In this document: piece by piece, positions 19,998 to 45,302 of the stretch | Numbering within the stretch: the stretch's first letter is position 1 | How the letters are laid out: each line of letters starts with the position of its first letter | From: Escherichia coli | GTDB taxonomy: Bacteria > Pseudomonadota > Gammaproteobacteria > Enterobacterales > Enterobacteriaceae | Reading direction: 5' to 3' (one strand) | Assembly: GCF_044324785.1 (NCBI RefSeq) | Contig: NZ_CP172127.1 | DNA length: 64,000 nucleotides | Translations under genes and position numbers: made by a program | The notes under the pieces: generated by a model | The model's database searches: none | The model's input: only the letters and a program-made list of their open reading frames with translations | Told to the model about the DNA's origin: nothing

Positions 19998-20243
19998 TTG
20001 AGAGTTACCGGTTTTGATATGGGTGTCGAATCCTTATACAAAACACGGGTAACTCTCATGCTTCATACTACCAATCCCGTTATCAAACACAAAGCCAGTT
20101 TGCTCAATCTGGCTGAAGAACTCAGCAACGTATCAAAAGCCTGTAAAATCATGGGCGTTTCGCGTGATACGTTTTATCGTTACCGCGAACTGGCCGATGA
20201 AGGCAGGGAAAGATTACGAAAGCCCGCTCCCTGCAAGGACTGA
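19998..20243 (+). pseudogene. transposase N-terminal HTH fragment (IS481/IS3-like), truncated
   Basis: 81-aa ORF ...[34 protein letters not shown] matches the GxSRxTxYxWxxRY HTH pattern; 3' end overlaps the H-repeat transposase. Confidence 0.3.
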
Positions 20244-21287
20244 CGCCAGGTAGTTTCTGTCCATGGCTGCTTTTCGCATCTTACGTCTTAACCCTGCCTT
20301 GAATACCTTATCATTCGTTAAAATATTAATAGCGATGTGCCGTATCCCTGAAAATAATTCTGCTGCATTTCCTCTTCTTATTTTGCAGTCGTCTTCATTC
20401 ATTACCACGTCCAGACGCCAGTGCAGCTTATTCTCCACGTGCCAGTGATTTCGGATCGCTGTGGCGAACTTCTCAGCGGTTAAATCAGCAGAACTGATGT
20501 AATATCTGACCGTCATTTCTGGCTCTTTCTTTTGTTCTGCTATTATGGACCGAAAGGAGACTGCCACGCATAATTTCTTCAGTCCTTTCCATTCAAACGT
20601 GAAATCAATAAGTTCATCAGGGACATCGCAAACAATATGAAGACGGATTTCTTCTCTGCCTTGACTTTTTTCACTAATTGCGTAACTGTCATGCTCTGGA
20701 TTATTTAATTCTTTCAGTGGGAATTTTTCCTCAAAGGCTTTATTAAGCCGCCCCTGATTTCCTTTTACAGCGAATAAATAATCACCGCCCTGTTTTTGTA
20801 TCTTCTCTGCGATATCTTTCTGGCAACCCATCGCATCAGTTGTGATAATTTTTCCTTTAATATCCAGCATGTTAAGAAGTTCAGGGATAGCTGTGATCTC
20901 ATTGGATTTCTTATCCGTCCTGATCTGTCCGATGACAAGACTGTGCATTGTTGAGAACGCACTAATGACATGAATCGCTCCCCTGCGGCGACTCTTGTCA
21001 TAAGAATGCCGGAGCGTTTTTCCATCAATTGCAATAACGTCTTTATCATCTGAAGAATGGCAGTCACGCATCCCGTTAATAAAGCACTCGTGAAATTTTA
21101 CAGGACTGATACAGGATACAACTCTGGCAATGGTATCGTGAACAGGAATACCATTTTCAAAATCACCATATTGCTTCAAAAAATCGAGATGTGTTTCCCC
21201 AAAATCCTCTATATCTTCCCAGCATTCTGCACCAGAAATAACGGCACAAATAGTCAACAGTAGAATATCCGACAATTTATGTTCCAC
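20214..21287 (-). CDS. ISAs1-family (H-repeat-associated) transposase; frame extends to ATG at 21350 but is interrupted by an in-frame TAG at 21291..21293
   Basis: 357-aa ORF (V/M)[35 protein letters not shown]... typical of Rhs-linked H-rpt ORF-H; upstream in-frame MELKKLMEHISIIPDYRQA-TAG-K. Confidence 0.8.
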
Positions 21288-21630
21288 TTTCTAGGCTTGT
21301 CTGTAATCGGGGATAATAGAAATATGTTCCATCAATTTTTTCAGTTCCATTTTGTTCTCCTTAATTATGTAAGGAGTATTTGATCATGTATACGCAATAA
21401 AAAACAGCTTTAGGTAATAAGGAATATCTCAATTTTTAAACATAAAATGCGAATTATTTAGTACAAAAAGTGAACTTCTGATGATCTTTCCCTGCCCATT
21501 GGGTTCATTAAGATCAAGAATAATGGGAATATGCTCAAGAAGACTTTGAATGTTCACCAGACGTCCTTTTCTAATATATTTAATTATTTGGCGATTAAAT
21601 TTTAATCAAATCAACAAGGTAAAACCAAGA

Positions 21631-21696: not shown

Positions 21697-22071
21697 TTAC
21701 TCTAATGGTTTTATTAATTGTAAATTTTTAAATGTCATGCTTAATAAGCCATCAGAAAAATAAAGAAAAAATTTATATATCCTTTTGTTTTTTAATTTCT
21801 TTATATACCCATTACTTATATTACCTGACTTGTGATTATCGATTAACTCAGCAGAATCCATAGCGAACACTAAATCATCTACATCAGAAAATTCAACTAT
21901 CATTTTTTCCCTAATGTTCTCATTTTTATAAATGTCAATAAATAACGTCATGTTAAAATGAGATTCTTTGAATGTCGTTTTTACTTCTAACAAAACCCCA
22001 TCATGCCAGTCAATTGAACTCACAATGTCAAAATCGCTCATTATATAATCTCCATTATCCGTTTTAATCAT
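21697..22071 (-). CDS. ydcD: Rhs-associated immunity protein (YdcD-like), about 124 aa
   Basis: [31 protein letters not shown]...; ATG (22071..22069) overlaps the Rhs stop TGA (22070..22068) as ATGA; no signal peptide; AT-rich. Confidence 0.7.
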
Positions 22072-25000
22072 GGAGTAACAACGTTTGCAGGTATTGACCA
22101 CCAAAGAGGTGGTGCAAGTGAAGGTATAAATCGAATCACTCTATATATAACATACCCTGCGCCAATTGTAGCACCAGTTGCAAGAGCCGCATCAGTAGTT
22201 GATAGCCCGGAGGTTTTGCATGACAGATCTTTACTTGGTTCTGGCTCGAAACCATATTTTTTTGCACATTTCTTAATGCTATTTGGTGCTGATGAGTAAT
22301 CCTCACCATGGGACATACCTCCAAATTCCCCCATTACACCACTCCCATTTTTACACTCCCAATGCAAATGTCTTCCGTCACCAACAGCATCGCCATCTAT
22401 TCGGATTCGACAACCTTTACCACAGTCCTTCCATTTTCCTGAAGTATGAGCTAATCCCAATGGATCAATCCATTGCACAGGATTGTTCATAACATAACTG
22501 TACGGGTTTATTCCCCCCGCCAGCCCTATCGGATCCTGGATGATATACCGCCCCTGCAACGGATCGTAGTACCGGTGACGGTTATAATACAGCCCCGACT
22601 CCTCATCGTGTTGCTGCCCAGGCAGACGGTAGGGCTGGTGCAGGTGATGCGGGTTTTCCTCATTCAGCAGGTTTCCCCACTCATCATACTCCCCGCTCCA
22701 CGCCGTATTGCCGTCTTCGCTGATGAGCGCCAGCGGCAGGCCCCGGTGGTCGCAGTGGTAAAGATGAACTTTTCGCGCCGGTGTGTATTCCGGCTCCACC
22801 TGTCTGGCCAGTTGCTCTACCGTCAGCCCGCACTGCGCAAGCCACGCCCGGCTTTCACTGCTCACGCGGTCTGCCCGGATTTCCCCCTCCAGCCTGTCCA
22901 GCATCCTCACAAGTTCTGCCGGGAACACCACACCGTGTCCGTTCTCGCTCCCTTCCTGCTGCAACTTCTCCGCCAGGCTCCGCCGCTGCGTTTTCTCCCG
23001 CTCGCCGTTGTCTGTTTCGATGCGGATGAGTGGTGTGAAGCTTCCCGGCTCGTATACCGTCTGGATACGTGTGCTGTCGGTCTGCACCGTCGTCAGGTGG
23101 TCGCCGTCCCAGCCGTACCACGTCACCTCCGGTTTACGCGACAGCGACATCCACCCCGTCAGGTCACGTACCCGCCGCCACACCCGTTTACCCGTCCGGC
23201 GGCCCAGCGGGTCGTAGAGGTAGCGGCTCTCCACCTGCGGCTCGCCATGCTGTATCCGCGTGTAGAACACCAGGCGGTGCTGGCTGTCGTAGTGGTAGTG
23301 GTGGGTCCGCTCGTCGTCCGTCCGTATCACACCCGCCGGGATGCGGTCCGTCTTCTCCGTCAGCCTGCCGTATTCATCGTGGCGGTAGACATAGTGCGCA
23401 TCCTCCGCGATGCGGTTATCCGGCCACACTGTGAGTGTACTGTCCGGGTGCAGCTCCGGGTCCGGCAGCCGGTTGCCCGCCGGGTCCGTGGCATACGGGA
23501 TGCGGATGTCCAGGTCCGGTGCGAGGGTGCGCACACTCTCCAGCCTGCCCGTGGCGCTGTAGCCGTATTCCCGCGTCTGTCGCGGGCCGCTGATGCGCAC
23601 CAGGTCGCCGTTGTCATTCCACCCGTAGTCACGGTCATACACCAGGCTGTTCAGGTGCTGGCTCTGTAACTGGCCTGCGGGGGTGTATGTGCTGGTCAGT
23701 TCGTATGCGGCATTACTGCCTGCCATGCTGCCGAAGCTGCGCACCGTCTCCCGGTGCAGCCTGTCCCGCGTATACTCGACCCGCGGCGTCCCGCCCAGCT
23801 TCATTCCCGCCAGGTAACCGCTGCCATACGTCAGCCACTCCACCGGCGGCAGGCTGTCCGGCGTGACGCGGTTTGCCAGCCCCTGCTCGTTGTATGCGTG
23901 TTTCGTCTCATGCTGCCACAGCAGTTCCCCCGTCTCCGGGTTCTCCACCGTCTGGCGTTCGCCGGTCAGGCGGCCTTTATCGTCATAGCCGTAGTGGACC
24001 GCCACACGGTGGCCTTCACTGATATGGCTGAGGGTGGTTAACCACCCGTGCTCATCATACTGCCACTGCTCTGCCGGGTCGCCGTTCACCGTCCGGTGCG
24101 TGATGCGGTCTGCTTCATCGTAGTACCACTGCGTGACCTGCCCCTCATCCTAGCTGCGGATGAGCTGCCCTGTGGCGCTGTACCGGTAACGCTGTGTCCT
24201 GCCATCAAAGCCGCGCTGCTCCGTCAGGCGGTCCAGCACATCGTAGGTAAATTCACTCCGGCTGCCGTTCTCGTTGGTCAGCACGGTGATGCGCCCGGCA
24301 GCGTCATACCCCATGCTGCGCGTCAGCCCGCCTTCCGTCACACTCACCGGACGCCCGCGTTTATCATATGCGATGGTGCTGCGTTTACCGTCCGGTGATA
24401 TCGTTGCTGTCAGGTCGCCTGCGGCACTGTACTCATAACGGGTTTCACGCCCCTGCGCATCCTTCTGCCCTGTCAGCCTGCCGCGGCTGTCATAGAGACT
24501 ATAAATACTGAGACCTTCCTCCCGGTGAACGGCGATTTGTTGACCGTACCGGTCATACTCATACCGCGTCATGTACCCCGAGCAGTCCGTGAAGGCCCGA
24601 AGCTGACCGTACCGGTTTCGCGTTATTCTCCGCGTTACCCCGATTCCGTCTTCCACCGCGCCGGGCAGGCTACTGCGGGGGGAGTCATAAAACCAGCGTG
24701 TAATGTTACCGTTGCGCGAGGTCTCTTCTGCCAGTCGGCCCTGACGGTCATATTTCCGGCTGCTGCGTAAACCATCCGGATATGTCACTGAAGTCAGTTG
24801 CAACTGGCTGTTATAGCCATACCACACCGTCCTGCCGTCCGGCAGTATCACTGAAGTCAGCTTTCCAGACGCCATATGCAGCCGGTTCACCGTCCGCCGC
24901 CCCGCCGCATCCGTCTGCGCCTTCAGCCTCCCCGCCTCATCATACTCGCTGCGGGTGATGCTCCCGTCCGCATGCTCCTTCTTCACCACCCGCTTCAGAC

Positions 25001-26242
25001 CACCTTCGCCTTCCGTGTACAGCACCTCCCGCCGGTTCAGGCTGTCCGTGATGGTCACACGGTCCTGCCCGTACTCAAAGCGGTAGTCCAGTCCCTCCTG
25101 GTTGACCTGCTCCGTCACCCGCCCGGTATCATCATACCGGTAGCGGCTCTCCGGCCTCCCTGCATAATGGCGCGCCACCATCCGCCCGGCGTGCTCCGCA
25201 TCATAAGTAAACCCGCGCACCTGCGTCCCGCTGCGGTCATACACCGCCCGCAGTTCTCCGCTGGCCGTGTACGTGTAGCGCGCCAGCGGCGCAGTCGGCT
25301 GTTCATCCGGGTATGCCGGGTCGTGTGTCAGCCACACCGCCTCCAGACGGATACCGTTATCCGTGCCGTATTCTGTACCGGCGGGCAGCGTGTCGGGGAA
25401 AGCTGAAGAAGAGGAAGCAGAACGGGGACCTGCAGGGGAAGATAAAGACGTGGCGCGCTGTTTACGGAGGGCTTCCGCCCGCTGCGCCTGTGTGGTCAGC
25501 GCCAGATGAAAACGGCGGCCCGCGCCGTCCGTCACCCCCGTCACCGCGCCCGCCGCTTCCCCCTCTGCCGCCCGGTGGAAGGCCAGCGTCCGCCCGAAGC
25601 CGTCCACCACGCCCGTCAGCACCCGGTATGCGGGCGGCTCCGGCGGCAGCACCTCGTCCGCCTCCGGCACCCGCTCCGGCCAGCCGAGTATCAGCCACTG
25701 CCCGGTTGTGCTGGCAGCCATCATATAGATGTGTGGACTCAGACGGACCGCTTCCGGCAACGCCCGCCAGAGCCGCGCAAGCGGGTGGCCTTTGTGCTGT
25801 TTCAGCACCCCGCCCCGCGCCAGCCAGAACGACTCACTGCGGCTGTAACTTATCTCGCCGGGAAACAGGGGTTCAAAGTGAATACTTCTGCCGCCACTGT
25901 CGTTGAGTATCAGGCCTTCATCGCGTATCTGTAAGCGGATATCGAAGGGGGCTTTCCAGCCGGGACCAAACACCCCACCGGCGCGGGTGTCCTGGTCCGG
26001 TAGCTGCTGTAAGCGCGAGAAAGAATAAACGGCAGCGGGCCGGGCAGCGCAAGGTCCGTCTCGCCCGGCAGCACCTTCGCACCCAGTAGCGGGTTCAGCG
26101 GGTTAGCATAGGTAATCCCTCCCGGACACACCGAGCAGGCCACTCCCGTCGGCGCACCTATCAGCCCCCCTGCTGAACCCTGCACAATATCCAGTCCCTT
26201 GCGGGTCATGTCACCCTGCCGCGCCGCCGGTTTTCCGCTCAT
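22068..26242 (-). pseudogene. rhsE: Rhs family protein, full-length copy inactivated by a 1-nt deletion (about 25968) and an in-frame TAG (24150..24152); C-terminal tail differs from the upstream Rhs
   Basis: Three collinear minus ORFs (25910..26242, 24150..25973, 22068..24089) together align along the intact Rhs at 26781..31043; core ends ...[28 protein letters not shown] then a 127-aa unique tail. Confidence 0.8.
22480..24089. repeat. Rhs core segment nearly identical to 27286..28895 (direct repeat, constant offset 4806 bp)
   Basis: Identical encoded protein over about 380 aa ([28 protein letters not shown]...KLQQEGSE) and identical antisense ORFs at 22473..23669 and 27903..28475. Confidence 0.85.
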
Positions 26243-26318
26243 GGTTTATTCCTTTTCTTTTACCTTACATGTCCATACAAATAGTTACCTATACTGTCTT
26301 TGAATATTGCCCTACCAT

Positions 26319-26768
26319 TTAAAGCCCACCTATTTCTTGCGACAGAAAAGGGATTTCTTTTTTAATCCAATCTACCATTTCATTTTTTTCAAAACATACG
26401 TTAATGCCATTCACACTTCCACATTCACCAAAACCATCAAAATAAATTTCACATTTATTATTTTTATTCGAAACAATGTCAATCCCCCATCTTATATCGT
26501 TATTCTCCTCCTTCCTGAAATACTTCATTTGCAATAAATCAATTATCTCACCAGCATAAAAATCGCTAACCCCATTCACCACCACTTTATGTTTGTATAT
26601 TCTCTTGAGACCTTCCTTGCTAAGCGGGGTTAAGGTGGTAACATATGCTGGAAGATTAATTATTTCTATCGTTTTCACACTATCTATTCCACACAATTCA
26701 TTCACTCGCCCCATCCCCAATACCGAAGCAGAAAATAGAGACAATAAAACCATCAAATATTTCATCAT
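26319..26768 (-). CDS. candidate immunity protein for the Rhs HExxH tail; predicted exported (N-terminal signal peptide), 149 aa
   Basis: Starts 12 bp after the Rhs stop; MMKYLMVLLSLFSASVLG hydrophobic N-terminus; four Cys (C26, C116, C123, C131); AT-rich. Confidence 0.7.
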   Translation of the reverse strand: MMKYLMVLLSLFSASVLGMGRVNELCGIDSVKTIEIINLPAYVTTLTPLSKEGLKRIYKHKVVVNGVSDFYAGEIIDLLQMKYFRKEENNDIRWGIDIVSNKNNKCEIYFDGFGECGSVNGINVCFEKNEMVDWIKKEIPFLSQEIGGL

Positions 26769-26780
26769 AAAAAAATCTCA

Positions 26781-29700
26781 CTATTCTGGCGTGCCATTTA
26801 TTGTTGCCGTCTGTGTTGGTGTATTCACACGATAATACACTCCATTATATGCTGTTCTGGTACACTCACCTAAAGTTTTCGCCGCATGCTGTTCAATTAA
26901 AGTGATAACTCTCGCCTCTTCTTTATTTTTATATTGTTCATCCGCACGTCTCACAAGCCCCATATAGCCATCCTTATCAATAAGATATAAGTGCGCATGA
27001 GCAAACTCATGCCCCAAACCTAATGCAGGTGATTGTGATTTCGATTTTAAATCAGTTGAACAAAATAAAGCCGCCTTACCATTCCAATATATAGTCATTT
27101 TATCCGGGTCAAATCTAACGTCGGTTTCATCAATATACTCTATCTTTATGGTTTCTTCAGAGCTTGATAAAAAATCTATAGCTTCTTTCATTCGTGAATC
27201 TTGTTTTAAATACTCAACAGCCTGATTAAAATCACTTGGATCATCGTTAACATGGAATTTTAAACCCAAAGAATCTATAAACCGAACAGGGTTTAATGGA
27301 TATTTATACAGATTCCATTCACCTCTTAGCCCGATTGGATCCTGGGTGATATACCTCCCCTGTAGCGGGTCATAGTACCGGTTCCGGTTATAGTACAGTC
27401 CTGATTCCTCATCATGCTGCTGCCCCGGCAGACGGTATGGCTGGTGCAGGTGATGCGGGTTCTCCTCATTCAGCAGGTTGCCCCATTCATCATATTCCCC
27501 ACGCCATTCCGTTGCTCCTTCGGTACTGATGAGCGCCAGCGGCAGCCCCCGGTGGTCACAGTGATAAAGATGAATTTTTCGCTCAGGTAAATAAACCGGC
27601 TCTATCTGTGCCGCCAGCCGCTCCACCGTCAGCCCGCACTGTGCCAGCCACGCCCGGCTTTCACTGCTCACGCGGTCTGCCCGGATTTCCCCCTCCAGCC
27701 TGTCCAGCATCCTCACAAGTTCTGCCGGGAACACCACACCGTAGCCGTCCTCGCTTCCTTCCTGCTGCAACTTCTCCGCCAGGCTCCGCCGCTGCGTTTT
27801 CTCCCGCTCGCCGTTGTCTGTTTCGATGCGGATGAGTGGTGTGAAGCTTCCCGGCTCGTATACCGTCTGGATACGTGTGCTGTCGGTCTGCACCGTCGTC
27901 AGGTGGTCGCCGTCCCAGCCGTACCACGTCACCTCCGGTTTACGCGACAGCGACATCCACCCCGTCAGGTCACGTACCCGCCGCCACACCCGTTTACCCG
28001 TCCGGCGGCCCAGCGGGTCGTAGAGGTAGCGGCTCTCCACCTGCGGCTCGCCATGCTGTATCCGCGTGTAGAACACCAGGCGGTGCTGGCTGTCGTAGTG
28101 GTAGTGGTGGGTCCGCTCGTCGTCCGTCCGTATCACACCCGCCGGGATGCGGTCCGTCTTCTCCGTCAGCCTGCCGTATTCATCGTGGCGGTAGACATAG
28201 TGCGCATCCTCCGCGATGCGGTTATCCGGCCACACTGTGAGTGTACTGTCCGGGTGCAGCTCCGGGTCCGGCAGCCGGTTGCCCGCCGGGTCCGTGGCAT
28301 ACGGGATGCGGATGTCCAGGTCCGGTGCGAGGGTGCGCACACTCTCCAGCCTGCCCGTGGCGCTGTAGCCGTATTCCCGCGTCTGTCGCGGGCCGCTGAT
28401 GCGCACCAGGTCGCCGTTGTCATTCCACCCGTAGTCACGGTCATACACCAGGCTGTTCAGGTGCTGGCTCTGTAACTGGCCTGCGGGGGTGTATGTGCTG
28501 GTCAGTTCGTATGCGGCATTACTGCCTGCCATGCTGCCGAAGCTGCGCACCGTCTCCCGGTGCAGCCTGTCCCGCGTATACTCGACCCGCGGCGTCCCGC
28601 CCAGCTTCATGCCCGCCAGGTAACCGCTGCCATACGTCAGCCACTCCACCGGCGGCAGGCTGTCCGGCGTGACGCGGTTTGCCAGCCCCTGCTCGTTGTA
28701 TGCGTGTTTCGTCTCATGCTGCCACAGCAGTTCCCCCGTCTCCGGGTTCTCCACCGTCTGGCGTTCGCCGGTCAGGCGGCCTTTATCGTCATAGCCGTAG
28801 TGGACCGCCACACGGTGGCCTTCACTGATATGGCTGAGGGTGGTTAACCACCCGTGCTCATCATACTGCCACTGCTCTGCCGGGTCGCCGTTCACCGTCC
28901 GGTGCGTGATGCGGTCTGCTTCATCGTAGTACCAGAGGATGACAAGCCCCTCATCTTCACTCTGCGTGAGTTTTCCGGTCAGGTCATAATGATAACGTTG
29001 CGTCCGCCCGTCAAAGCCGCGCTGCTGTACCAGGCGGTCCAGCGCATCGTAGCTGAAGTCGCTGTGACTGCCGTTCTCGTTGGTCAGGCTGATGACACGT
29101 CCGGCAGCATCGTACTCCATACTGCGCGTCAGCCCGCCCTGCGTGGTGCTGACCGCCTTTCCCCACGCATCGTACTGTGTCTCGCTCCGGTTGCCGTCCG
29201 GGGTGATAACGGCAGTCAGGTCGCCTGCGGCGTTGTACTCATACTGCGTTTCACGGCCCTGTGCGTCTTTCACCGAGGTTAACCGGCCACGGTTGTCATA
29301 GCGGCGGTAACGGCTGATACCTTCCTCACGGTGGACCGCCGTCATCTGACCAAAGCGGTCGTATTCATAACGGGTCTGGTAGCCCGAGCAGTCGGTGAAC
29401 GCCAGCAACTGCCCGTAGCGGCTCCAGGTCATCTGCCGGGTGCTGCCCGTCGCATCCGTTGTCGTCGCCGGTAATTCACTGTGCGGATTATCATAAGCAT
29501 ACCGGATGACGTCCCCACTGCGCGATGTCTCCGTTACCAGCCTGCCCGGTTCATCATATGCCCGGCGGCTCTCCAGCCCGTCCGGGGACACCACTGCCGT
29601 CACCTGGTTCCCGTCGTTATAGTAAAATTTCGTCTCCCGCCCGTCCGGTGTGGTGATGTCCGTGATATCGCCTGACACCACATTCAGACCGTACTCTGTC

Positions 29701-31043
29701 CGCCGTCCCGCCGCGTCCGTCTGCGCCGTAAGCCGCCCCACCGGGTCATACCCGCTGCGCGTGACGCTGCCGTCCGCCAGTTCTTTTTTCACCACCCGTT
29801 TCAGCCCGCCTTCACCTTCTGTATGCAGCACCTCACGCCGGTTCAGGCTGTCCGTGACGGTGATGCGGTCCTGCTCATACTGGTAGCGGTAACTCAGGCC
29901 TGCCGGGTTCAGCTGCTCCACCACCCGCCCCGCATCGTCGTAGCGGTAGCGCATCTCCGGCCTTCCCGCGTAACGGTGCGCCACCATCCGGCCCGGGTGC
30001 TGCGCGTCATACGTGAAAGCGCGCACCTGCGTATTGCTGCGGTCATATACCGCCAGCAGTTCACCGGCTTCCGTATACGTGTACCGCGCCAGTGGCGCAC
30101 CGGGCAGATTCTCCGGGTATGCCGGGTCGTACATCAGCCACACCGCTGAAAGACGGATACCCCTGTCGGGGCCGTATTCCGTACCGGGCAGTGTGTCGGG
30201 GAAAGCTGAGTCTGAAAGAGGGCGGGGGGTGTCAGGGGAAAATAAGGAAGCGGTGTGCTGTTTACGGGCCTCTTCCGCCCGCTGCGCCTGCGTGGTCAGC
30301 ACCAGACGGAACTCCCGCCCGGCACCGTCCGTCACGCCGGTGATTTCCCCGGCCAGGTCACCGGCGGCCTCACGCCGGTACGCCAGCGTCCGCCCGAAGC
30401 GGTCTGCCAGCCCGGTAAGCACCCGGTACGGCGGCAGCGGCGCTGGCAGTACGTCCTCAGCACCCGGCACCCGCTCTGACCACCCCAGTATCCACCACGG
30501 CCCCTGTGCGCTGTTGGTCGCCAGGTAAAGATGCGGGCTTAACCGGATATCCGGCGGCAGCGCCCCCCACAGCCGTGCCAGCGTGTGGCCGTCCGGCTGC
30601 GCTGCCTTACCACCGCGCACCAGCCACATTGACTCGCTGCGGCTGTACACCGCCTCACCCGGCAGCAGCGGCTCAAAGTGAATGCTCCGCCCGCCGTTGT
30701 CGTTGAGTATCAGTCCGTCATCACGTAGCTGTAAGCGGATATCAGAAGGCGCTTTCCAGCCGGGGCCGAAAACGCCCACCGGCGCAGGCGTCTTCGTCCG
30801 GTAGCTGCTGTAGGTGCGGGAGAGAATGAACGGCAGCGGGCCGGGCAGCGCAAGGTCCGTCTCGCCGGGCAGCACCTTCGCCCCCAGCAGCGGATTTACC
30901 GGGTTGCCCGAAGTCATCCCGCCCGGACACACCGAGCACGCCACGCCGGTGGGCGCGCCAATTCTTACACCTGCCGAACCCTGGACAATGGGACCGCCAT
31001 ACTGAGTCATATCTCCCTGACGCGCCGCTGGTTTTCCGCTCAT
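26781..31043 (-). CDS. Rhs family protein with conserved PAAR-like N-terminus, YD-repeat core and C-terminal tail containing an HExxH motif, 1420 aa
   Basis: [42 protein letters not shown]...; YD repeats; core ends ...[27 protein letters not shown]; tail 26781..27260 contains [10 protein letters not shown] (codons at 26997..27011). Confidence 0.9.
27286..28895. repeat. Rhs core segment nearly identical to 22480..24089
   Basis: see paired repeat. Confidence 0.85.
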
Positions 31044-31109: not shown

Positions 31110-33218
31110 TCAGTACTCTCTCATATCCGGCGTATCCTGCTTTTCATCAGGGGTCTTCGGTGGGGATTTCGAGGCTGCACAGTTCCAGTTAATCAACAGT
31201 GAGTCACCATTAACCTGCTCCTTACCCTGCAAATGAATTTTTGTGCCGTTGAGAAAAATTTGTCCGTCCTTAGTCAGCACCAGCCTTGCCTTACCACAGC
31301 AGAGTTCCAGATGCTCACCGGCGGAGTAAATCGCGGTCTGCCCGGTATCATCCTTTTTCGTTTTACCAACGGTGAAGGTAACGTTATTTCCGACTTTGAC
31401 GTCATAACCCAGCCCGACCCTCAACGATTTATGCAAACCGATCTGCGAGGACTGCATCAGGGCCACCGAGGTGTTCATAATGCCACCTACCGTCGTCTGA
31501 TACGCCACGCCCACAGTCAGCGCACGCACAAGTCCAATCGTTTCCACCTGAACAGAGCCCACTTTAATGATCTGGTTACTGCCCACCGTCTCTATCTGGT
31601 TAACACCCACCGTCTGTATCTGATTGTTGGTAACCGCAATCATCTGATTGTTGCCAATGGTCTCAGCATGGTTGTTTATCACATCCGTGGTGCGGTTATT
31701 CAGCACCTCGGTGTTCATATTCTTCTGCGCGTGGATGTAGACCTGTTCTTTCCCTGTCGCATCGTCAAACTTCAGTTCATTAAACCCGCTGCCCTTATAG
31801 GTTTTCGAACGAATGGTCATCTGCGTCTTTGTTCCCGGCAGGCTGCCGGGGGTGCGGTTTTCCTGGTGGTAGGTACGCCCCATAATAATCGGCTGGTCCG
31901 GATCGCCGTTGAGGAAGTCCACAATGACTTCCTGACCCACACGCGGTATCGCCAGGTTGCCAAAGCTGGTGCCTGCCCACGCCTGTGCCACACGGATCCA
32001 GCATGAACTGTCCTGGTTTGACGGGTTATAGCGGTCCCAGTTAAATTTCACCCGCACGCGGCCATGTTCATCACAGAAGATTTCCTCGCCTGCCGGTCCT
32101 GTCACGACGGCGCTCTGCGGGCCATCCACCAGCGGTTTCAGCAACGGCTGTGGTCGCCATGTTCTGTCTGCCGGTATTACCGCAAAGTGGTTATTCAGTG
32201 TGGTACCCGAACCACTGCGTCCCGGCACCGCCTGCGGCTGCTCGCCGTGCAGATCGCTCGCCACCACCTGCCATTCACGGTTCAGGTTCGCCTGCGGATG
32301 CCCCGTCAGCGCAATTCGCCGTCCCGGCCATATCTCCGGCGAACGGCTTGTTCCGCGCGCCACTTCTGCGTTGTTTCGCCAGCCATCCATCTGCCAGCGG
32401 GCAAAGTTCTGCCCGTGGGCACCCTTGAAACGTCCGGGGTAGTCATACACTTCATACTGTGTGCGCTGGTAATCCTGGTGCTGGCCTTCCTGATCAAAAC
32501 GCCCTGCCCAGCCGGGTCGTTTAAAGGTGTAGTCTTTGGTCACCACGGAAGATGGGCGGATTTGTGCGCTGTAGCGGAACTGGCTGATGCAGAGGGTGCT
32601 CACCTCGGTACGGGTGTTCGGATTCCAGGGGATCTCAAAGGACTCCGGCAGATAACGCACGGTGTCGCACAGGACCAGGCTCTGGTCGGTACTTTTTTGC
32701 GCGTGCTCCTCATAAAAGAAGATGCCTTCCTCCGCCGCCATCCGGCACAGGAAATCGTAATCGGTCTCACCGTACTGGACACAAAATTCACGGGAAGGAT
32801 GCGGCTCGCTGAACAGCGGACTCCACTCGGTCACCCCGTTTTCTTTCAGGATCGTCACGAGGATGCTTTCGATGTCCTCATTCTGGAAGATACGGAAGTT
32901 CTGGCGCAGCCCTGTGCGCCACAGCGGTGGGCACACCTTCATGCTGTACAGCATCTGGTTTTTGTCGTTCTCCCCCAGTTCAAACCAGGTCACCACACCT
33001 TTCACCCGGCGCTGTACGTCATCGCCCTGCCATACCGTCAGGTAGGCCATTTTGTCCAGCACCTGCGCAAATTCAAGGGAAAGAAACTGCTGACTGACCA
33101 GAGAAAGGTCGAGGGAAAAAAGTGAAGAGAGTGACTGGTTCAGATGAAAGGAGACCACCGCAAACGCGTCCGGTGGCAGGCCGTCCACTTCCAGCGTGAA
33201 ACGTAATCCGGTTGACAT
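31110..33218 (-). CDS. vgrG: VgrG (type VI secretion spike protein), about 702 aa
   Basis: MSTGLRFTLEVDGLPPDAFAVVSFHLNQSLSSLFSLDLSLVS... with GGAGG RBS; ends 67 bp before the Rhs start; track ORF extends to 33323 but the RBS supports 33218. Confidence 0.88.
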   Translation of the reverse strand: MSTGLRFTLEVDGLPPDAFAVVSFHLNQSLSSLFSLDLSLVSQQFLSLEFAQVLDKMAYLTVWQGDDVQRRVKGVVTWFELGENDKNQMLYSMKVCPPLWRTGLRQNFRIFQNEDIESILVTILKENGVTEWSPLFSEPHPSREFCVQYGETDYDFLCRMAAEEGIFFYEEHAQKSTDQSLVLCDTVRYLPESFEIPWNPNTRTEVSTLCISQFRYSAQIRPSSVVTKDYTFKRPGWAGRFDQEGQHQDYQRTQYEVYDYPGRFKGAHGQNFARWQMDGWRNNAEVARGTSRSPEIWPGRRIALTGHPQANLNREWQVVASDLHGEQPQAVPGRSGSGTTLNNHFAVIPADRTWRPQPLLKPLVDGPQSAVVTGPAGEEIFCDEHGRVRVKFNWDRYNPSNQDSSCWIRVAQAWAGTSFGNLAIPRVGQEVIVDFLNGDPDQPIIMGRTYHQENRTPGSLPGTKTQMTIRSKTYKGSGFNELKFDDATGKEQVYIHAQKNMNTEVLNNRTTDVINNHAETIGNNQMIAVTNNQIQTVGVNQIETVGSNQIIKVGSVQVETIGLVRALTVGVAYQTTVGGIMNTSVALMQSSQIGLHKSLRVGLGYDVKVGNNVTFTVGKTKKDDTGQTAIYSAGEHLELCCGKARLVLTKDGQIFLNGTKIHLQGKEQVNGDSLLINWNCAASKSPPKTPDEKQDTPDMREY

Positions 33219-34036
33219 AGCAACCTCCGTGAAAATGAATAATAATCCGCACATATTGCATGTACAACATGTCGGGCGGATGAGATAAGCGAGTCGACAT
33301 CTGGCGTTACCGGGGAATATCAAAAAATGTCATGGTTATGTGATGATTTAGTCTGGGATTTTACTTCAGAGAAACGGGTGTCTGTTTAGTCAACAAAATA
33401 ATCACAAACGCAACGGATGGGTTCTCGACGTTATTCACGACAGGCTCGTACATTACAGCGAGTAATAAAAACCTGATATGCAAAGTCAAACCAATATTCA
33501 TAATGTCTTTTTATTCACAACAATAAATAATTCAATAACAATCATTGAAATGAATGATGGTTTGTATAAGGAATATACGCTGCCGCCCCACCCTGATAAC
33601 ATGATCTGCACATTGCCATCTTAACGTCGTTAAACACTGGCTTAATAGTGGATATTTAAAATTAGGAATTTATTAAATTCACCTGATGAATATCATAAGC
33701 AAATAGCATAGAAAATAATGACAACTCCCCCGAGGGGACCATTTCCAAAGCACTGCACCACCACCTGGTGCCCGGATGATCTTGCTTCAGTGGTAAGAGT
33801 ACCTGATTCATTGTTCCCAAAATGGTGTTTTCCCCTGCCCCTCCAATAATGTGCAGCTCTCACGTGATAATCTATTGATTAGGTTATATTAAGAATCAAT
33901 ATTTGAAATACATCCATTTTCTTGAATAAATCAACATGTTTATTTATCAATTGCTGTTTTAGCTCTGACTCATCAAGCTCTCCATATTTGTCCTACAGAT
34001 AATCGCGAATAAATACAGAGAACGCCATTTATCCTT

Positions 34037-34249
34037 TTAGCATACCTGCCGGATATTTTTATTTGTATTAATATTAATTGCATCTCCAACTCCGAGCATA
34101 TCCATCATTAAAAACATTTTGAGATTATAGAATGCCTGTAATAACAACTGAAACATCAGCACAATGTGAATAGTTAGTTTCTTTTCAGAGGAAATGAAAT
34201 AGACAAGCTGAATGAAAGGGAGAGTGATATAAATTAAAAAACATAACAT
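34037..34249 (-). CDS. yncH: small 70-aa ORF at the position of yncH (DUF5445); could also be noncoding
   Basis: Size and position downstream of yncG match K-12 yncH; sequence is hydrophobic and AT-rich, so coding status is uncertain. Confidence 0.35.
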   Translation of the reverse strand: MLCFLIYITLPFIQLVYFISSEKKLTIHIVLMFQLLLQAFYNLKMFLMMDMLGVGDAININTNKNIRQVC

Positions 34250-34324
34250 GAATCTAATTAATTACGTTCATCATTGTGGATAAAGTTACTGAATAATAAA
34301 TAACATAATCTTCTGGTATCCCAC

Positions 34325-34942
34325 TCAAATAATTCCATTCCTTTTTAATACTTCTTGTAATTTCGGTAACTGACATACAGCATCAGCAATCGCACTGATA
34401 TTCGTGGCATTATCCTGAAACCATTCATGCCCAGGCCCCCATGTGCGCATAGTGCAAAGATAACAGTCCACCAGCGTTAGTTGCTCACCAAACGCATAAG
34501 GTTCAGCGGTCAATTGTGAATTCAGCCATATATAAAGTGATTTGCGATATTCAATAACATTCTTCTTTAACTGTTCAGGTGCGTCAGGAGCCCAACGCTC
34601 AGGGTAATCGGCGAAAGTGAATGTTGGATAGACATTAGCAACCAGCCAGACCAATAGCCGTTGAAACTGCTGACGTTCGGCGCGCCCAACCGGTGGCGCA
34701 AGGTCCGGGCGACGATCGAGAACCATCAATGCAATCGCCGCTGTCTCCGTCATAATCTCGTCATTTTCCAATGCCAGTGTCGGAACCTGACACAACGGGT
34801 TCAGGGTTTTCAATAACTCGCGTGAAGCTCCCTCGTGGTCAAAACCACTGACATCAACGAACTGATAAGGAATATCAGCCAGTGTTAGCATGAGCTCACT
34901 GATTGTAGAGCCCCATTCGGGTACGCCATACACCTTAATCAT
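34325..34942 (-). CDS. yncG: glutathione S-transferase homolog, 205 aa
   Basis: MIKVYGVPEWGSTISELMLTLADIPYQFVDV... Confidence 0.88.
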   Translation of the reverse strand: MIKVYGVPEWGSTISELMLTLADIPYQFVDVSGFDHEGASRELLKTLNPLCQVPTLALENDEIMTETAAIALMVLDRRPDLAPPVGRAERQQFQRLLVWLVANVYPTFTFADYPERWAPDAPEQLKKNVIEYRKSLYIWLNSQLTAEPYAFGEQLTLVDCYLCTMRTWGPGHEWFQDNATNISAIADAVCQLPKLQEVLKRNGII

Positions 34943-35208
34943 ATGCCCCTCACAATCTTTTAAAGATTAAGTGTAGGACAGTACACAGGTTAACCAGCAA
35001 AAGGATTTGTCATTTTTTCGTCAGTTGTATTAATCCCCTTCAGGATTGTAAGGGGATGTTTTGCATCGTTTATCGATAACGGGTAGGATGCTGCGCCGAT
35101 AGTTTTATACCCATAAAGAATAATGGTGATAACTATCATCGCCAGGATGAATAAACATTGTTCATGGCAACTTATATGACTTTTTCATTAAAGCAATCAG
35201 GGAGAGCA

Positions 35209-36708
35209 ATGAGTAAACACGACACCGACACTTCAGATCAACACGCCGCGAAACGCCGCTGGCTTAATGCCCACGAAGAGGGGTATCACAAAGCGATGGG
35301 CAATCGCCAGGTACAGATGATCGCCATTGGCGGCGCGATTGGTACGGGTTTGTTTTTAGGCGCGGGAGCCCGACTGCAAATGGCGGGGCCAGCACTGGCA
35401 CTGGTCTATTTGATCTGCGGCCTGTTTTCATTTTTTATTCTGCGTGCATTGGGTGAGCTGGTGTTACACCGCCCTTCCAGTGGCAGTTTTGTCTCTTATG
35501 CCCGTGAGTTTTTAGGAGAGAAAGCCGCTTACGTTGCAGGCTGGATGTACTTCATCAACTGGGCGATGACGGGGATTGTCGATATTACCGCCGTCGCTCT
35601 GTATATGCATTACTGGGGTGCGTTTGGCGGCGTGCCGCAGTGGGTCTTTGCGCTCGCTGCGCTGACCATCGTTGGCACCATGAATATGATCGGTGTGAAA
35701 TGGTTTGCTGAGATGGAGTTCTGGTTTGCGCTTATTAAAGTGCTCGCCATTGTGACCTTTTTGGTCGTGGGTACAGTGTTCCTCGGTAGTGGTCAGCCGC
35801 TGGATGGCAACACCACTGGCTTTCATTTAATTACCGATAACGGCGGCTTCTTCCCCCACGGTTTGCTGCCTGCGCTGGTGTTGATTCAGGGCGTAGTGTT
35901 TGCTTTTGCCTCCATTGAAATGGTGGGTACAGCTGCCGGAGAATGTAAAGATCCGCAGACCATGGTGCCTAAAGCGATTAACAGTGTGATTTGGCGTATT
36001 GGCCTGTTTTACGTCGGCTCCGTGGTGTTGCTGGTTATGTTATTGCCGTGGAGCGCGTATCAGGCGGGGCAAAGTCCGTTCGTGACGTTTTTCTCTAAAC
36101 TGGGTGTGCCATATATCGGCAGCATTATGAACATTGTGGTGCTGACCGCTGCCCTCTCCAGCCTGAACTCAGGTCTGTACTGCACCGGACGTATTCTGCG
36201 CTCGATGGCGATGGGCGGTTCCGCACCGAGTTTTATGGCGAAAATGAGTCGTCAGCATGTGCCGTATGCCGGAATTCTGGCGACACTGGTTGTGTATGTC
36301 GTCGGCGTATTCCTCAACTATCTGGTGCCGTCGCGCGTATTTGAGATTGTGTTGAACTTCGCGTCGCTGGGAATCATCGCTTCATGGGCGTTTATCATCG
36401 TGTGCCAGATGCGCCTGCGTAAAGCGATTAAAGAAGGCAAAGCAGCGGATGTCAGTTTTAAACTGCCTGGCGCGCCCTTCACTTCCTGGCTGACATTACT
36501 GTTTTTGCTGAGCGTCCTGGTGCTGATGGCGTTCGATTACCCGAACGGGACTTATACCATCGCGGCGCTGCCGATTATCGGTATTCTGCTGGTTATAGGC
36601 TGGTTTGGTGTGCGCAAACGCGTTGCTGAAATTCACAGCACTGCGCCAGTCGTCGAGGAAGATGAAGAAAAACAGGAAATTATGTTTAAACCTGAAACGG
36701 CGAGTTAA
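35209..36708 (+). CDS. ansP: L-asparagine permease (APC family), 499 aa
   Basis: MSKHDTDTSDQHAAKRRWLNAHEEGYHKAMGNRQVQMIAIGGAIGTGLF... with GGAGAG RBS. Confidence 0.9.
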   Translation: MSKHDTDTSDQHAAKRRWLNAHEEGYHKAMGNRQVQMIAIGGAIGTGLFLGAGARLQMAGPALALVYLICGLFSFFILRALGELVLHRPSSGSFVSYAREFLGEKAAYVAGWMYFINWAMTGIVDITAVALYMHYWGAFGGVPQWVFALAALTIVGTMNMIGVKWFAEMEFWFALIKVLAIVTFLVVGTVFLGSGQPLDGNTTGFHLITDNGGFFPHGLLPALVLIQGVVFAFASIEMVGTAAGECKDPQTMVPKAINSVIWRIGLFYVGSVVLLVMLLPWSAYQAGQSPFVTFFSKLGVPYIGSIMNIVVLTAALSSLNSGLYCTGRILRSMAMGGSAPSFMAKMSRQHVPYAGILATLVVYVVGVFLNYLVPSRVFEIVLNFASLGIIASWAFIIVCQMRLRKAIKEGKAADVSFKLPGAPFTSWLTLLFLLSVLVLMAFDYPNGTYTIAALPIIGILLVIGWFGVRKRVAEIHSTAPVVEEDEEKQEIMFKPETAS

Positions 36709-42862: not shown

Positions 42863-43308
42863 ATCAGTCGCTTACCCTTGCTTTTTTGATTGCCGCCGGA
42901 ATTGGTCTGGTGGTGCAAAACACGCTGATGGTGCGCATCACCCAGACCTCCTCTACCATTCTCATCGCCATGCTGCTGAACTCACTGGTGGGGATTGTGC
43001 TCTTTGTATCTATTTTATGGTTTAAACAAGGCATGGCGGGGTTTGGCGAACTGGTGTCCAGCGTGCGCTGGTGGACACTTATACCTGGCTTGCTGGGATC
43101 GTTTTTTGTCTTCGCCAGTATCAGCGGATATCAGAATGTGGGGGCGGCTACGACTATTGCGGTACTGGTCGCCAGTCAGTTGATTGGCGGTCTGGTGCTG
43201 GATATCTTTCGCAGTCATGGCGTACCACTACGGGCGTTGATCGGCCCAATTTGTGGCGCAATTTTACTTGTGGTTGGTGCCTGGCTGGTGGCCAGGCGCA
43301 CATTTTAA
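42859..43308 (+). CDS. ydcZ: DUF606 inner membrane protein, 149 aa
   Basis: 149-aa membrane ORF overlapping mnaT stop. Confidence 0.85.
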   Translation: MNQSLTLAFLIAAGIGLVVQNTLMVRITQTSSTILIAMLLNSLVGIVLFVSILWFKQGMAGFGELVSSVRWWTLIPGLLGSFFVFASISGYQNVGAATTIAVLVASQLIGGLVLDIFRSHGVPLRALIGPICGAILLVVGAWLVARRTF

Positions 43309-43542
43309 TCAGAGGATGGTGCCACCTTTGGTTAACTGTTCGTGGCGCGCTTCCATATCTTCTTTATGCTTGCGACCGTGATGAGCAATAGCGGTGCGCA
43401 AACGCTGCTGCTGGGTGTAGCGATCTTCCCGACTTAACTCCGCGTCATCGCTCAGGGCGATTAATAATTCGTTCATATGGGCAATGACGCTCTCTTCAAT
43501 CGCGGCATCCACGCGCGCGATGACTTCATCCAGATGCGACAT
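43309..43542 (-). CDS. ydcY: DUF2526 protein, 77 aa
   Basis: MSHLDEVIARVDAAIEESVIAHMNELLIALSDDAELSRE... Confidence 0.8.
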   Translation of the reverse strand: MSHLDEVIARVDAAIEESVIAHMNELLIALSDDAELSREDRYTQQQRLRTAIAHHGRKHKEDMEARHEQLTKGGTIL

Positions 43543-43627
43543 ACTTTCTCCTTAGCCACTTGTGAAATTTATCGATTCATCCAAATGATATAAGTCTGCG
43601 TGGTGCCGTCAAGCCAGTGCGTAAGAT

Positions 43628-43801
43628 TTAAAACAGAGAAAACAACAGCGCCACCGGGAAACTCATCGGCCATGTAGCCCCCACCAGAAAGGCACTTAAG
43701 AAACGGATGCGTTTCTTATCGTGAGAAAGAAACCAGGTGATAAGAAATGCGATTGCTGCCATAACCGCATAAAAAACAAGCATGTGTTGATAGAGAGACA
43801 T
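43628..43801 (-). CDS. ortT: orphan membrane toxin OrtT (YdcX), 57 aa
   Basis: MSLYQHMLVFYAVMAAIAFLITWFLSHDKKRIRFLSAFLVGATWPMSFPVALLFSLF. Confidence 0.8.
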   Translation of the reverse strand: MSLYQHMLVFYAVMAAIAFLITWFLSHDKKRIRFLSAFLVGATWPMSFPVALLFSLF

Positions 43802-43995
43802 GTACGGGCGTCCAGCCAGATGAATAAAACGCGCGCAAATATGCGTCATTTTTTGACGTGCATCAAGTTTTTTAACCGGTTTGAGAAGAAAACATCAAAC
43901 AGCAACTTGCCCTTATCCATCTTCAGAATGAGTATTATTGCGGATTTTCTTAACCCGTACTATACACATAGGGGCAATGATAAAAGGTGGCAAAA

Positions 43996-44091
43996 ATGAA
44001 TGTTTCCAGTAGAACTGTAGTACTGATAAATGTCTTTGCTGCTGTTGGTTTGTTTACTCTTATCTCTATGAGATTTGGCTGGTTTATTTGA
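43996..44091 (+). CDS. yncL: small protein YncL, 31 aa, single transmembrane helix
   Basis: MNVSSRTVVLINVFAAVGLFTLISMRFGWFI; not in ORF track (<60 aa), read directly from DNA. Confidence 0.7.
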   Translation: MNVSSRTVVLINVFAAVGLFTLISMRFGWFI

Positions 44092-44114
44092 TGTAGTGAT
44101 TTTGCACGCAGCAC

Positions 44115-44147
44115 GTACTGTCAGAGAAATCAACTCTCTGACAGTAC
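44115..44147. repeat. perfect 12-bp inverted repeat GTACTGTCAGAG / CTCTGACAGTAC with 9-nt loop, downstream of yncL
   Basis: seen directly; no flanking T-run on either strand. Confidence 0.5.
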
Positions 44148-44492
44148 ACAAGATCTTCTCATACTCTCCAGGTTTACAACATTATCCTTAATATTTACTT
44201 CTTTTTGCTGGCATCTACATTGAAATGAGTAGAAAACATCCCCCTACTGTCGTCTATACAAACAGCTTACTGATTCAAAGGGAATCTTGTTTTCACATTT
44301 TTCTATCATCAATACTTTAGACGCGCGGGAGTCTATAAATGCTTTATACTTTCAAGGAATAACGTAAATATAAAAAGATGGCGTAAAGTATATGCATGGC
44401 AGGATGATTGCAACCTCCTTGATGACGCTGTCCCATTGAAATTGCAAACCCCGCACTGGTTATCTTACTCATTTATCATGTAAAACAGACAA

Positions 44493-45302
44493 TTATAGGT
44501 CTCTGAATATCTCAGAAAGATTGAATTTTTTATAGTCCCTCTCTTGAATATTTCCATTTGATATCAATCGATTCATCTCTTCAACAAAATAATTTATATC
44601 ATCACATTTGTTATTATCCGGAAGATCTGAGTAATTATAATTCCACCACTTTATTCTCAACAATTCATCAATAATATTTGAATCAAATCTAAATCTGATT
44701 ATTTTTGCAGGAACTCCTGCAACTATGGCATATGGGGGCACATCTTTGGTAACAACGGAATTGGCAGCAATAACAGCACCATCACCTATTGCGATACCAC
44801 CTTTCAATACAACATCATTTCCTATCCAGACATCATTTCCTATAATCGGATTTTCAGGTTTGGTAATGAATGGTTTCAATGCCCAGCTACGTTCAAACTC
44901 ACTCATAGCAAACTTATCAAATTCACCGTTATAAGTCATCATGTGAGTAGTAAAACGATTCAAAGGATGATTTCCACCCATTATTTTTACATTTGATGCA
45001 ATACTACAAAATCGACCTATATGTATATTCCCTGTAAAATGACAGGTCGGAAATGAAAAAGCGCCGACACTGGAGAAATTTTTTACAGGCATTGTTGAAT
45101 ATTCTTCAGCAATAACATTATCTTCAATTGTTATCTTGTCACCTTTTGAGAAAAGAAATAAATTCCTTTCTTTATACGACTTCTTCCCCTTATGATTTAA
45201 AAAGATTTTATTATCCATACAAAACTCAAAGTGTTTTTTCGTCCACCTGAAGGTAAGGGTTTTATTTTTATCTTCCGTGAATTTATACAATTGAACTTTC
45301 AT
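44493..45302 (-). CDS. hexapeptide-repeat xenobiotic acetyltransferase, Vat/CatB-like, 269 aa (start uncertain)
   Basis: HIGRFCSI...GGNH...IIGNDVWIGNDVVLKGGIAIGDGAVIAANSVVTKDVPPYAIVAGVPAKIIRFRFDSNIIDELLRIKWWNYNYSDL closely parallels streptogramin A acetyltransferase motifs; strongly AT-rich. Confidence 0.75.
   Translation of the reverse strand: MKVQLYKFTEDKNKTLTFRWTKKHFEFCMDNKIFLNHKGKKSYKERNLFLFSKGDKITIEDNVIAEEYSTMPVKNFSSVGAFSFPTCHFTGNIHIGRFCSIASNVKIMGGNHPLNRFTTHMMTYNGEFDKFAMSEFERSWALKPFITKPENPIIGNDVWIGNDVVLKGGIAIGDGAVIAANSVVTKDVPPYAIVAGVPAKIIRFRFDSNIIDELLRIKWWNYNYSDLPDNNKCDDINYFVEEMNRLISNGNIQERDYKKFNLSEIFRDL

Follow-up and report, generated by a model that had tools for sequence, protein, structure and literature searches.

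How is a toxin island expressed when its first gene lies behind more than a kilobase of AT-rich DNA with little sign of coding potential? The question is raised by a stretch of 64,000 nucleotides of Escherichia coli DNA (contig NZ_CP172127.1; hereafter, the window), in which a gap of 1106 bp (33219-34324) lies exactly between the stop codon of yncG and the ATG of vgrG (33218), the first gene of an RhsE-type orphan type VI secretion system (T6SS) cargo island. Much of the diversity of E. coli toxins comes from orphan vgrG-Rhs islands, whose expression from H-NS-coated DNA is poorly understood. Our results lead us to favor, with moderate confidence, the view that this interval is the 5' control region of the island and comprises an H-NS-silenced leader together with a promoter and an ops cassette for RfaH-dependent read-through. 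An earlier note on the same DNA had overlooked both the composite nature of the leader and the likeness of its most conserved piece to an RfaH loading site.

An ops-like element shared by orphan T6SS cargo islands

This control region is a composite, in that the whole segment and its 503-bp, 118-bp, and 37-bp parts each have a different distribution among islands. The parts on which the argument turns are the following.

33574..33691, minus strand: 118-bp element, one half promoter-like and the other JUMPstart/ops-like, with the palindrome GAATTTAATAAATTC
33575..33611, minus strand: JUMPstart-like core of 37 bp, GTGCAGATCATGTTATCAGGGTGGGGCGGCAGCGTAT
33576..33587, minus strand: ops-like 12-mer GGCGGCAGCGTA, co-oriented with vgrG, with C at position 6
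33618..33645, minus strand: candidate promoter, with -35 TTAAGC (33645-33640), a 16-nt spacer, and -10 TAAGAT (33623-33618); predicted start at about 33611
33219..33573, minus strand: proximal leader, non-coding, with less polymorphism than any other part of the locus

The proximal 503 bp (33219-33721) recur at 84% identity before a cusS-adjacent vgrG-DcrB-Rhs island (loci L003 and L008), where homology to the leader stops at 33721. The 118-bp element is 75-81% identical in ansP-adjacent hyp-hyp-vgrG-DcrB-Rhs islands (L004, L007, and L009), and the 37-bp core is 92% identical before the PAAR-vgrG islands of LF82 (L006) and O145:H28 (L023). Orphan T6SS cargo islands of four kinds, at two chromosomal sites, have the element, which is invariably in sense orientation and precedes the first island gene by 250-360 bp (357 bp from the ops-like site to vgrG in the window). 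A 111-bp probe around the core found matches in 4714 of 5426 complete E. coli genomes; beyond E. coli, the core occurred in one further Escherichia species among 100,044 GTDB species representatives, and plasmid matches to it proved to be mislabeled chromosomes.

The ops consensus, GGCGGTAGCGTG, is the site where paused RNA polymerase loads RfaH. On the non-template strand, the window agrees with this 12-nt consensus at 10 positions, genomes carrying GGCGGTAGCGTA agree at 11, and the cusS copy, AGCGGTAGCATA, agrees at 9, while the ansP-adjacent class C islands and the class D islands read GGCGGTAGCGT(A/T). The T allele, GGCGGTAGCGTA, was present in 11 of 11 other orthologues and, by exact word, in 3336 of the 5426 genomes, whereas the C allele of the window, GGCGGCAGCGTA, was found by exact word in a single genome, that of strain N3 itself, to which the whole region 33219-34324 is 100% identical. 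Two sets of columns are invariant in all four island classes, namely TAnGAT, which is unchanged in 7 of 7 sequences of alignment A3, and ops positions 2-9 (G2 to C9) and 11 (T11), the T6C of strain N3 being the only exception. The ops-like site follows the conserved -10-like TAAGAT at a distance of 31 nt, and the transcription start between them is a prediction. The core also shares CAGTGC, CAGGG, and GGCGGTAGCGT with the classic JUMPstart beside galF in strain B379, a likeness that surfaced when ISAs1 left ends, one of which adjoins the galF JUMPstart, were aligned.

Between this element and vgrG, the proximal leader is conserved to a degree that its lack of coding sequence would not lead one to expect. 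Among 10 E. coli sequences, only 6 of its 355 sites segregate, giving a nucleotide diversity (pi) of 0.0048, compared with 0.029 for yncG and 0.04-0.06 for vgrG, and it differs strongly from the third codon positions of yncG (Fisher p=4e-9). The suggestion of the earlier note that the tract carries the regulatory logic of the island is borne out to the extent that a conserved promoter-like and ops-like element and a very conserved proximal leader point to such a function.

In a side observation on the core, strain TUM1223 (L018) carries GATC>GTTC and TTATCA>TTTTCA in its 5' half, at the orthologue of 33600-33595, with the ops-like 12-mer intact.

The AT-rich gap and its binding by H-NS

The gap lies within a run of genes on one strand; yncG, the yncH open reading frame (ORF), vgrG, and two RHS core genes all read from the minus strand. 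Its borders and its unannotated distal part are as follows.

34942..34325, minus strand: yncG coding sequence, the upstream border of the gap
31110..33218, minus strand: vgrG (702 aa), first gene of the island, annotated with Pfam domains Phage_GPD, Phage_base_V, and Gp5_trimer_C
33722..34036, minus strand: distal AT-rich spacer, single-copy, found only in yncH-bearing genomes, unannotated

The GC content of the gap is 35.5%, against 49.9% across the 64-kb window, and 5.9% of equal-sized windows are as AT-rich. Its only ORF of at least 60 codons is yncH, the next longest encoding 56 aa, and the annotated gap between yncH and vgrG (818 bp) is the largest in 50 kb of the RefSeq-annotated record of strain N3, which is identical. 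The earlier description of a long, AT-rich, and non-coding tract between yncG and vgrG is therefore confirmed with exact coordinates, and the observation is real, if unremarkable and, for K-12, mostly known already. The window has other stretches that are equally AT-rich (3000-6500, 20000-21500, 26000, and 43000-44500), which include ompC/leucine-rich-repeat and H-rpt regions, the gap between two rhs copies, and the ortT-yncL region. Within the AT-rich leader itself, a single-copy block of higher GC content (47%) at about 33740-33870 contains a chi-like GGTGGTGG; the ORFs of this block gave no protein-family match, and a hairpin at 33738-33726 in the distal spacer folds no better than shuffles (z=0.16).

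The 1.1-kb segment was found in 3539-3575 of the 5426 genomes and is confined to those with the vgrG-rhsE haplotype; the distal spacer was present in 3575, with an identity of at least 95% in each. In genomes where other islands fill the site, homology ends exactly at the yncG stop codon, which means that the whole 1.1 kb, including yncH, belongs to the vgrG-rhsE haplotype. K-12 keeps window positions 33286-34324 at 97.8% identity, its deletion having taken vgrG, the last 67 bp of the leader with the Shine-Dalgarno (SD) sequence and a stem-loop, and the N terminus of RhsE.

An AT content above the host average and variable presence among strains, both of which this DNA displays, are the marks of H-NS-silenced xenogeneic DNA. 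The proposal that the tract is bound by H-NS is supported for the K-12 orthologue, for which published binding data exist. Genomic SELEX (systematic evolution of ligands by exponential enrichment) placed H-NS and RpoD-holoenzyme sites in the K-12 spacer between yncH and rhsE (PMC3946193), and a weak PhoB peak upstream of K-12 rhsE (1527862), detected by chromatin immunoprecipitation sequencing (ChIP-seq), is flagged 'H-NS-bound x' in Table 1 of a second study (PMC10294691). The motif of this peak, which marks the H-NS-bound region of K-12, has an orthologue in the window.

33318..33334, plus strand: orthologue of the PhoB motif (PMC10294691)

Moreover, transposon-directed insertion-site sequencing (PMC5821084) lists yncH and ydcD with the genes that are poor in Tn5 insertions, a scarcity that is consistent with occlusion by H-NS. 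The H-NS nucleation motif TCGATAAATT was uninformative, with 4 sites in the region against 2.5 expected.

Downstream of the gap, vgrG is followed by the two RHS core genes, both of them frameshifted, and in the identical strain N3 record the interval 22064-31043 is annotated as frameshifted RHS pseudogenes; in this strain, the island probably has no active toxin part. At 20210-21500, the island is closed by an ISAs1/H-rpt element (ydcC, interrupted by an internal stop), whose left end begins CAGGGAAAGATC.

A model for read-through of the island

We propose that the distal 600 bp, namely the yncH ORF and spacer, would be AT-rich island DNA serving as a substrate for H-NS, which may coat both the leader and the island and keep them silent. 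The 118-bp cassette would provide a weak sigma-70 promoter (-10 TAAGAT) initiating near 33611, a start position predicted from the sequence, and an ops-like site on the non-template strand some 25 nt past that start; co-directional read-through from yncG might be an alternative source of transcription. RNA polymerase would pause at the ops-like site (about +25), where RfaH could load and then suppress Rho- and H-NS-dependent termination, allowing the 7-12 kb vgrG-rhs operon to be read through. Beyond the cassette, the conserved untranslated leader of about 350 nt would end in the stem-loop and a strong SD sequence. Recruitment of RfaH and antitermination at this locus are what we infer from the conservation of the site.

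This putative mechanism agrees with two lines of work. One paper reports counter-silencing by RfaH of H-NS-StpA filaments in pathogenic E. coli (PMC9765446), and a 2025 preprint ties RfaH, ops, and the T6SS together in enteroaggregative E. coli (EAEC) (bioRxiv 10.1101/2025.02.08.637259). Among the literature titles and abstracts searched, none was found that pairs RfaH with rhs or with orphan vgrG islands.

Composition, boundaries, the lack of coding constraint in yncH, the conservation pattern, and the allele counts were all computed directly, and several points weigh against an RfaH-dependent control region. The case for RfaH and ops rests on comparison between genomes, and RfaH dependence is an extrapolation from it. 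The site has A or T at position 12 and never the consensus G, the cusS copy deviates at positions 1 and 10 as well, and matches to ops with 2 mismatches occur in the window at chance level (3 found, 5.2 expected). In this haplotype, the candidate promoter suffers from a poor -35, and it is not among the top hits of the window to a position weight matrix (PWM). The H-NS data come from K-12, where a deletion has removed vgrG together with 67 bp of leader, and the restriction of the element to Escherichia means that recent common descent could explain part of its conservation. Finally, the Rfam JUMPstart model RF01707 scored the LF82 core at 19.7 bits (E=0.031), the top Rfam match for that stretch, against a gathering score of 35, and it did not match the K-12-type core even in a 171-bp search. 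The galF positive control reached 52.6 bits, and the perfect ops of the sci-1 cluster of EAEC 042 reached 19.8 bits; since a perfect ops scores this low, failure of RF01707 is not evidence against ops function, the model being specific to JUMPstart elements of the polysaccharide type.

On balance, these sequences probably represent a new member of the ops/RfaH class that is common to orphan T6SS cargo islands. A broader idea, which we put forward tentatively and would rate at somewhat below even chances, is that all the kinds of Escherichia orphan T6SS cargo island (vgrG-Rhs, vgrG-DcrB-Rhs, and PAAR-vgrG-DUF2169) have at their head a portable promoter and ops cassette of about 118 bp, which would be present at two chromosomal hot spots and in 87% of the complete genomes of E. 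coli, with RfaH as the common counter-silencer and the leader of about 350 nt as a second layer of control. If this were true, expression of the cargo islands would be coupled to that of lipopolysaccharide, capsule, and, in EAEC, the T6SS machine itself. If the site is a working ops, T6SS cargo islands would join the small RfaH regulon, and the escape of AT-rich operons of 7-12 kb from Rho- and H-NS-dependent termination would find an explanation.

The single base, T versus C, that separates 3336 genomes from strain N3 offers a testable handle on these proposals. Position 6 is a contact base in the interaction of RfaH with ops, and the private T6C change would be expected to cripple the ops-like site in strain N3. 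Together with the frameshifted rhs genes, this change suggests that the island is probably decaying in that strain.

The alternative of an ordinary promoter region

The most serious alternative, which we nevertheless regard as unlikely, is that the leader is a plain H-NS-silenced promoter region in which the 118-bp block is the promoter and operator of an activator or repressor, control is exerted at initiation only, and the likeness to ops is fortuitous. The block does contain the palindrome GAATTTAATAAATTC and a conserved -10-like hexamer, and the core is overlapped by a sigma-70-like TTATCA-16-TATATT whose position is kept in the orthologues and in the cusS copy; the deviation at ops position 12 and the absence of an RF01707 match for the K-12 type point the same way. 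However, the bases that are invariant are those of ops positions 2-9 and 11, whereas the TTATCA and TATATT hexamers vary between classes (TATACA, TTTACA, and TATTTA). Moreover, the chance expectation of an exact 11-mer match to ops in 1.1 kb is about 5e-4, and the flanking CAGTGC and CAGGG fit JUMPstart as well. We continue to prefer a promoter coupled to an RfaH loading site.

Several other promoter assignments were considered and set aside, including one that Shimada et al. (PMC3946193) had proposed for the K-12 spacer.

33462..33489, minus strand: sigma-70-like TTGACT-16/17-TATTAC

This sequence is not conserved in Escherichia sp. E4742 or in the cusS paralogue. The TTATCA-16-TATATT overlapping the core has a -10 that varies between classes and is excluded as the promoter if ops must be transcribed. 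Readings of the core as a sigma-54, CRP, Fur, IHF, or sigma-E site did not fit when it was compared by eye with consensus sequences, and a consensus promoter and terminator scan of the region gave fewer matches than shuffles. The cusS copy of the candidate promoter, TTGAGC-16-TAAGAT, scores 9.2 with an approximate PWM.

The yncH open reading frame

The distal half of the gap contains the one ORF that might give the region a coding function.

34037..34249, minus strand: yncH ORF, 70 codons (Pfam DUF5445)

If yncH were a genuine gene for a small hydrophobic protein, the rest of the region would be its 3' flank and the vgrG promoter. In its favor, there is the match to Pfam DUF5445, a YncH family is annotated in RefSeq, the frame is open in 12 of 12 sequences examined, and yncH is among the hits of an ASKA overexpression screen (PMC8228696). 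The Pfam family, however, consists of these very yncH sequences, and the 158 homologues found among 5.8 billion proteins searched are each at least 84% identical and come from Escherichia wherever an organism is named. The ratio of nonsynonymous to synonymous polymorphism (pN/pS) of yncH is 1.2-2.2 in comparisons with K-12 and cryptic-clade Escherichia, against 0.13-0.23 for yncG and vgrG. Likewise, segregating sites in 12 sequences are spread evenly over its three codon positions (6/8/8), which contrasts with yncG (22/7/34) and vgrG (30/28/114).

Inspection of the sequence ahead of the yncH ATG revealed no SD sequence, and the ATG itself is missing from the widespread alleles P0077 and P0082, which occur on 778 and 896 contigs. 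An ORF of at least 70 codons arises in 29% of shuffles of the region, so its length alone is no evidence for a gene. These results uphold the doubt that the earlier note had cast on the ORF, and the conservation analysis that it had called for gives no sign of purifying selection on the protein. Most likely, yncH is not a functional protein gene but an annotation artifact or, at most, a proto-gene, and we consider its status as a genuine gene improbable; the yncH (DUF5445) model is very likely spurious and has been carried through thousands of annotations. The yncH allele of strain TUM1223, by comparison, has 71 codons and an altered N terminus.

Island boundaries and the possibility of a recombination scar

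A further alternative, to which we give very little credence, is that the core is not a regulatory signal but a recombination or insertion junction, or a scar related to an insertion sequence (IS), through which cargo islands are swapped. The observations that prompt it are that, in the ansP-adjacent class C and the class D islands, the point where homology between classes stops is no more than 1-2 bp from the core's 3' edge (33574/33575), and that in LF82 a 155-bp fragment of an ISAs1/H-rpt left end begins 3-6 bp downstream of the ops-like core. The core is, however, not part of ISAs1; as an ISAs1 terminus it was ruled out, given that the H-rpt copy in the window has unrelated flanks. At the cusS site, the core is internal to the island, whose boundary is found some 755 bp upstream of vgrG, within the 3' end of cusS. 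An allele purity of 3336:1 would not be expected of a scar, nor would the persistence of the core while both flanks diverge.

The boundaries themselves yielded some additional observations. The cusS-adjacent island replaces approximately the last 20 bp of cusS (L003:6737-6760), and homology to genomes free of the island breaks off about 22 bp inside the 3' end of cusS, which implies that island-bearing strains have a different CusS C terminus. Genomes with the ansP-adjacent class C island (L007:6386-6487 and L009) retain a 68%-identical remnant of yncG, indicating that the alternative haplotypes at this hot spot are old. Two hairpins between yncE and ansP (L010:418-526) that resemble repetitive extragenic palindromic (REP) sequences gave weak, sub-threshold matches to the Rfam family naRNA4 and are ordinary REP elements.

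RNA structure in the leader

The end of the leader next to vgrG contains two features that bear on a possible role of the RNA.

33245..33281, minus strand: stem-loop found by folding, 17 nt upstream of the vgrG SD sequence, followed by an AU-rich tail
33224..33228, minus strand: vgrG SD sequence GGAGG, read from the sequence

The stem-loop has a folding free energy of -17 kcal/mol (z=-3.77), and none of 200 shuffles was as stable. In the cusS paralogue only its outer ATCCG/CGGAT arms remain (-3.5 kcal/mol, z 0.04), and in K-12 it is deleted. No Rfam match was found in a scan of 32500-35500 at E<=1. The 503-nt leader as a whole folds no better than shuffles (z=-0.40), and RNAalifold found compensatory changes at 0 of 86 and 0 of 13 pairs in alignments of the conserved element and the proximal leader, the latter alignment including the paralogue, which differs at about 16% of sites. 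No 3' ends are among those listed between about 1526900 and 1528099 of K-12 in published Term-seq supplements (PMC7815308). The leader ORFs of 25, 31, 37, 46, and 48 aa gave no NCBIfam matches, and none is preserved over orthologues and paralogues.

The idea of a small RNA, which the earlier note had raised, consequently finds no backing in Rfam, covariation, the leader fold, or the Term-seq ends listed for K-12. That the leader encodes a small RNA, or a structured RNA that regulates in cis in the manner of a riboswitch, thermometer, or attenuator, is extremely improbable, since the very high conservation of the non-coding proximal leader and the significant stem-loop ahead of the SD sequence (z=-3.77) are outweighed by the lack of an Rfam family, an unremarkable overall fold, the absence of compensatory pairs despite the divergence of the paralogue, the loss of the stem-loop in that paralogue, and the lack of listed K-12 3' ends.

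Comparison with known systems

The closest relative of this leader is the K-12 spacer between yncH and rhsE, which is the same DNA at 97.8% identity and a published target of RpoD holoenzyme and H-NS. It differs from the leader described here in that vgrG, the SD sequence, the stem-loop, and the RhsE N terminus have been lost, and in that its ops-like site has the T allele where the window has C.

Silencing of horizontally acquired T6SS DNA has precedents. In Salmonella, the T6SS DNA of SPI-6 is bound or silenced by H-NS. For enterohemorrhagic E. coli (EHEC), one article cites a statement that H-NS silences the T6SS (PMC7216683). Both systems are, likewise, AT-rich, horizontally acquired T6SS DNA under H-NS; the reports concern main secretion clusters, whereas vgrG-rhsE here is an orphan island.

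The nearest parallel for an ops site in such a setting is the sci-1 cluster of EAEC 042 (NC_017626.1 4859297-4859308; L027:24298-24309), in which a perfect ops, GGCGGTAGCGTG, stands in sense orientation between hcp and tssH/clpV, directly after the strong hcp terminator hairpin. The two resemble each other in that the site lies in sense orientation within an E. coli T6SS transcription unit, a predicted one in the case of the cargo island. They differ in that the EAEC site is a perfect 12-mer inside the main cluster, whereas the site described here is a variant matching at 11 of 12 positions (10 of 12 in strain N3) within a distinct 118-bp cassette that heads orphan cargo islands, and the sequence contexts are unrelated.

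The JUMPstart/ops leaders of rfb, waa, kps, hly, and tra operons (RF01707) provide the broadest comparison. They and the leader described here have in common an element of 37-38 nt with a CAGTGC-like 5' end, CAGGG, and GGCGGTAGCGT, placed on the sense strand within an untranslated leader, here a predicted one, and followed by a long, AT-rich, horizontally acquired operon. In the cargo islands, the central hairpin of JUMPstart is not kept, three extra bases precede ops, the G of position 12 is replaced by A or T, and the RF01707 match is below the gathering score (19.7 versus 35) or absent. The cargo differs as well, consisting here of T6SS spike and toxin genes in place of genes for envelope polysaccharides, hemolysin, or pili.

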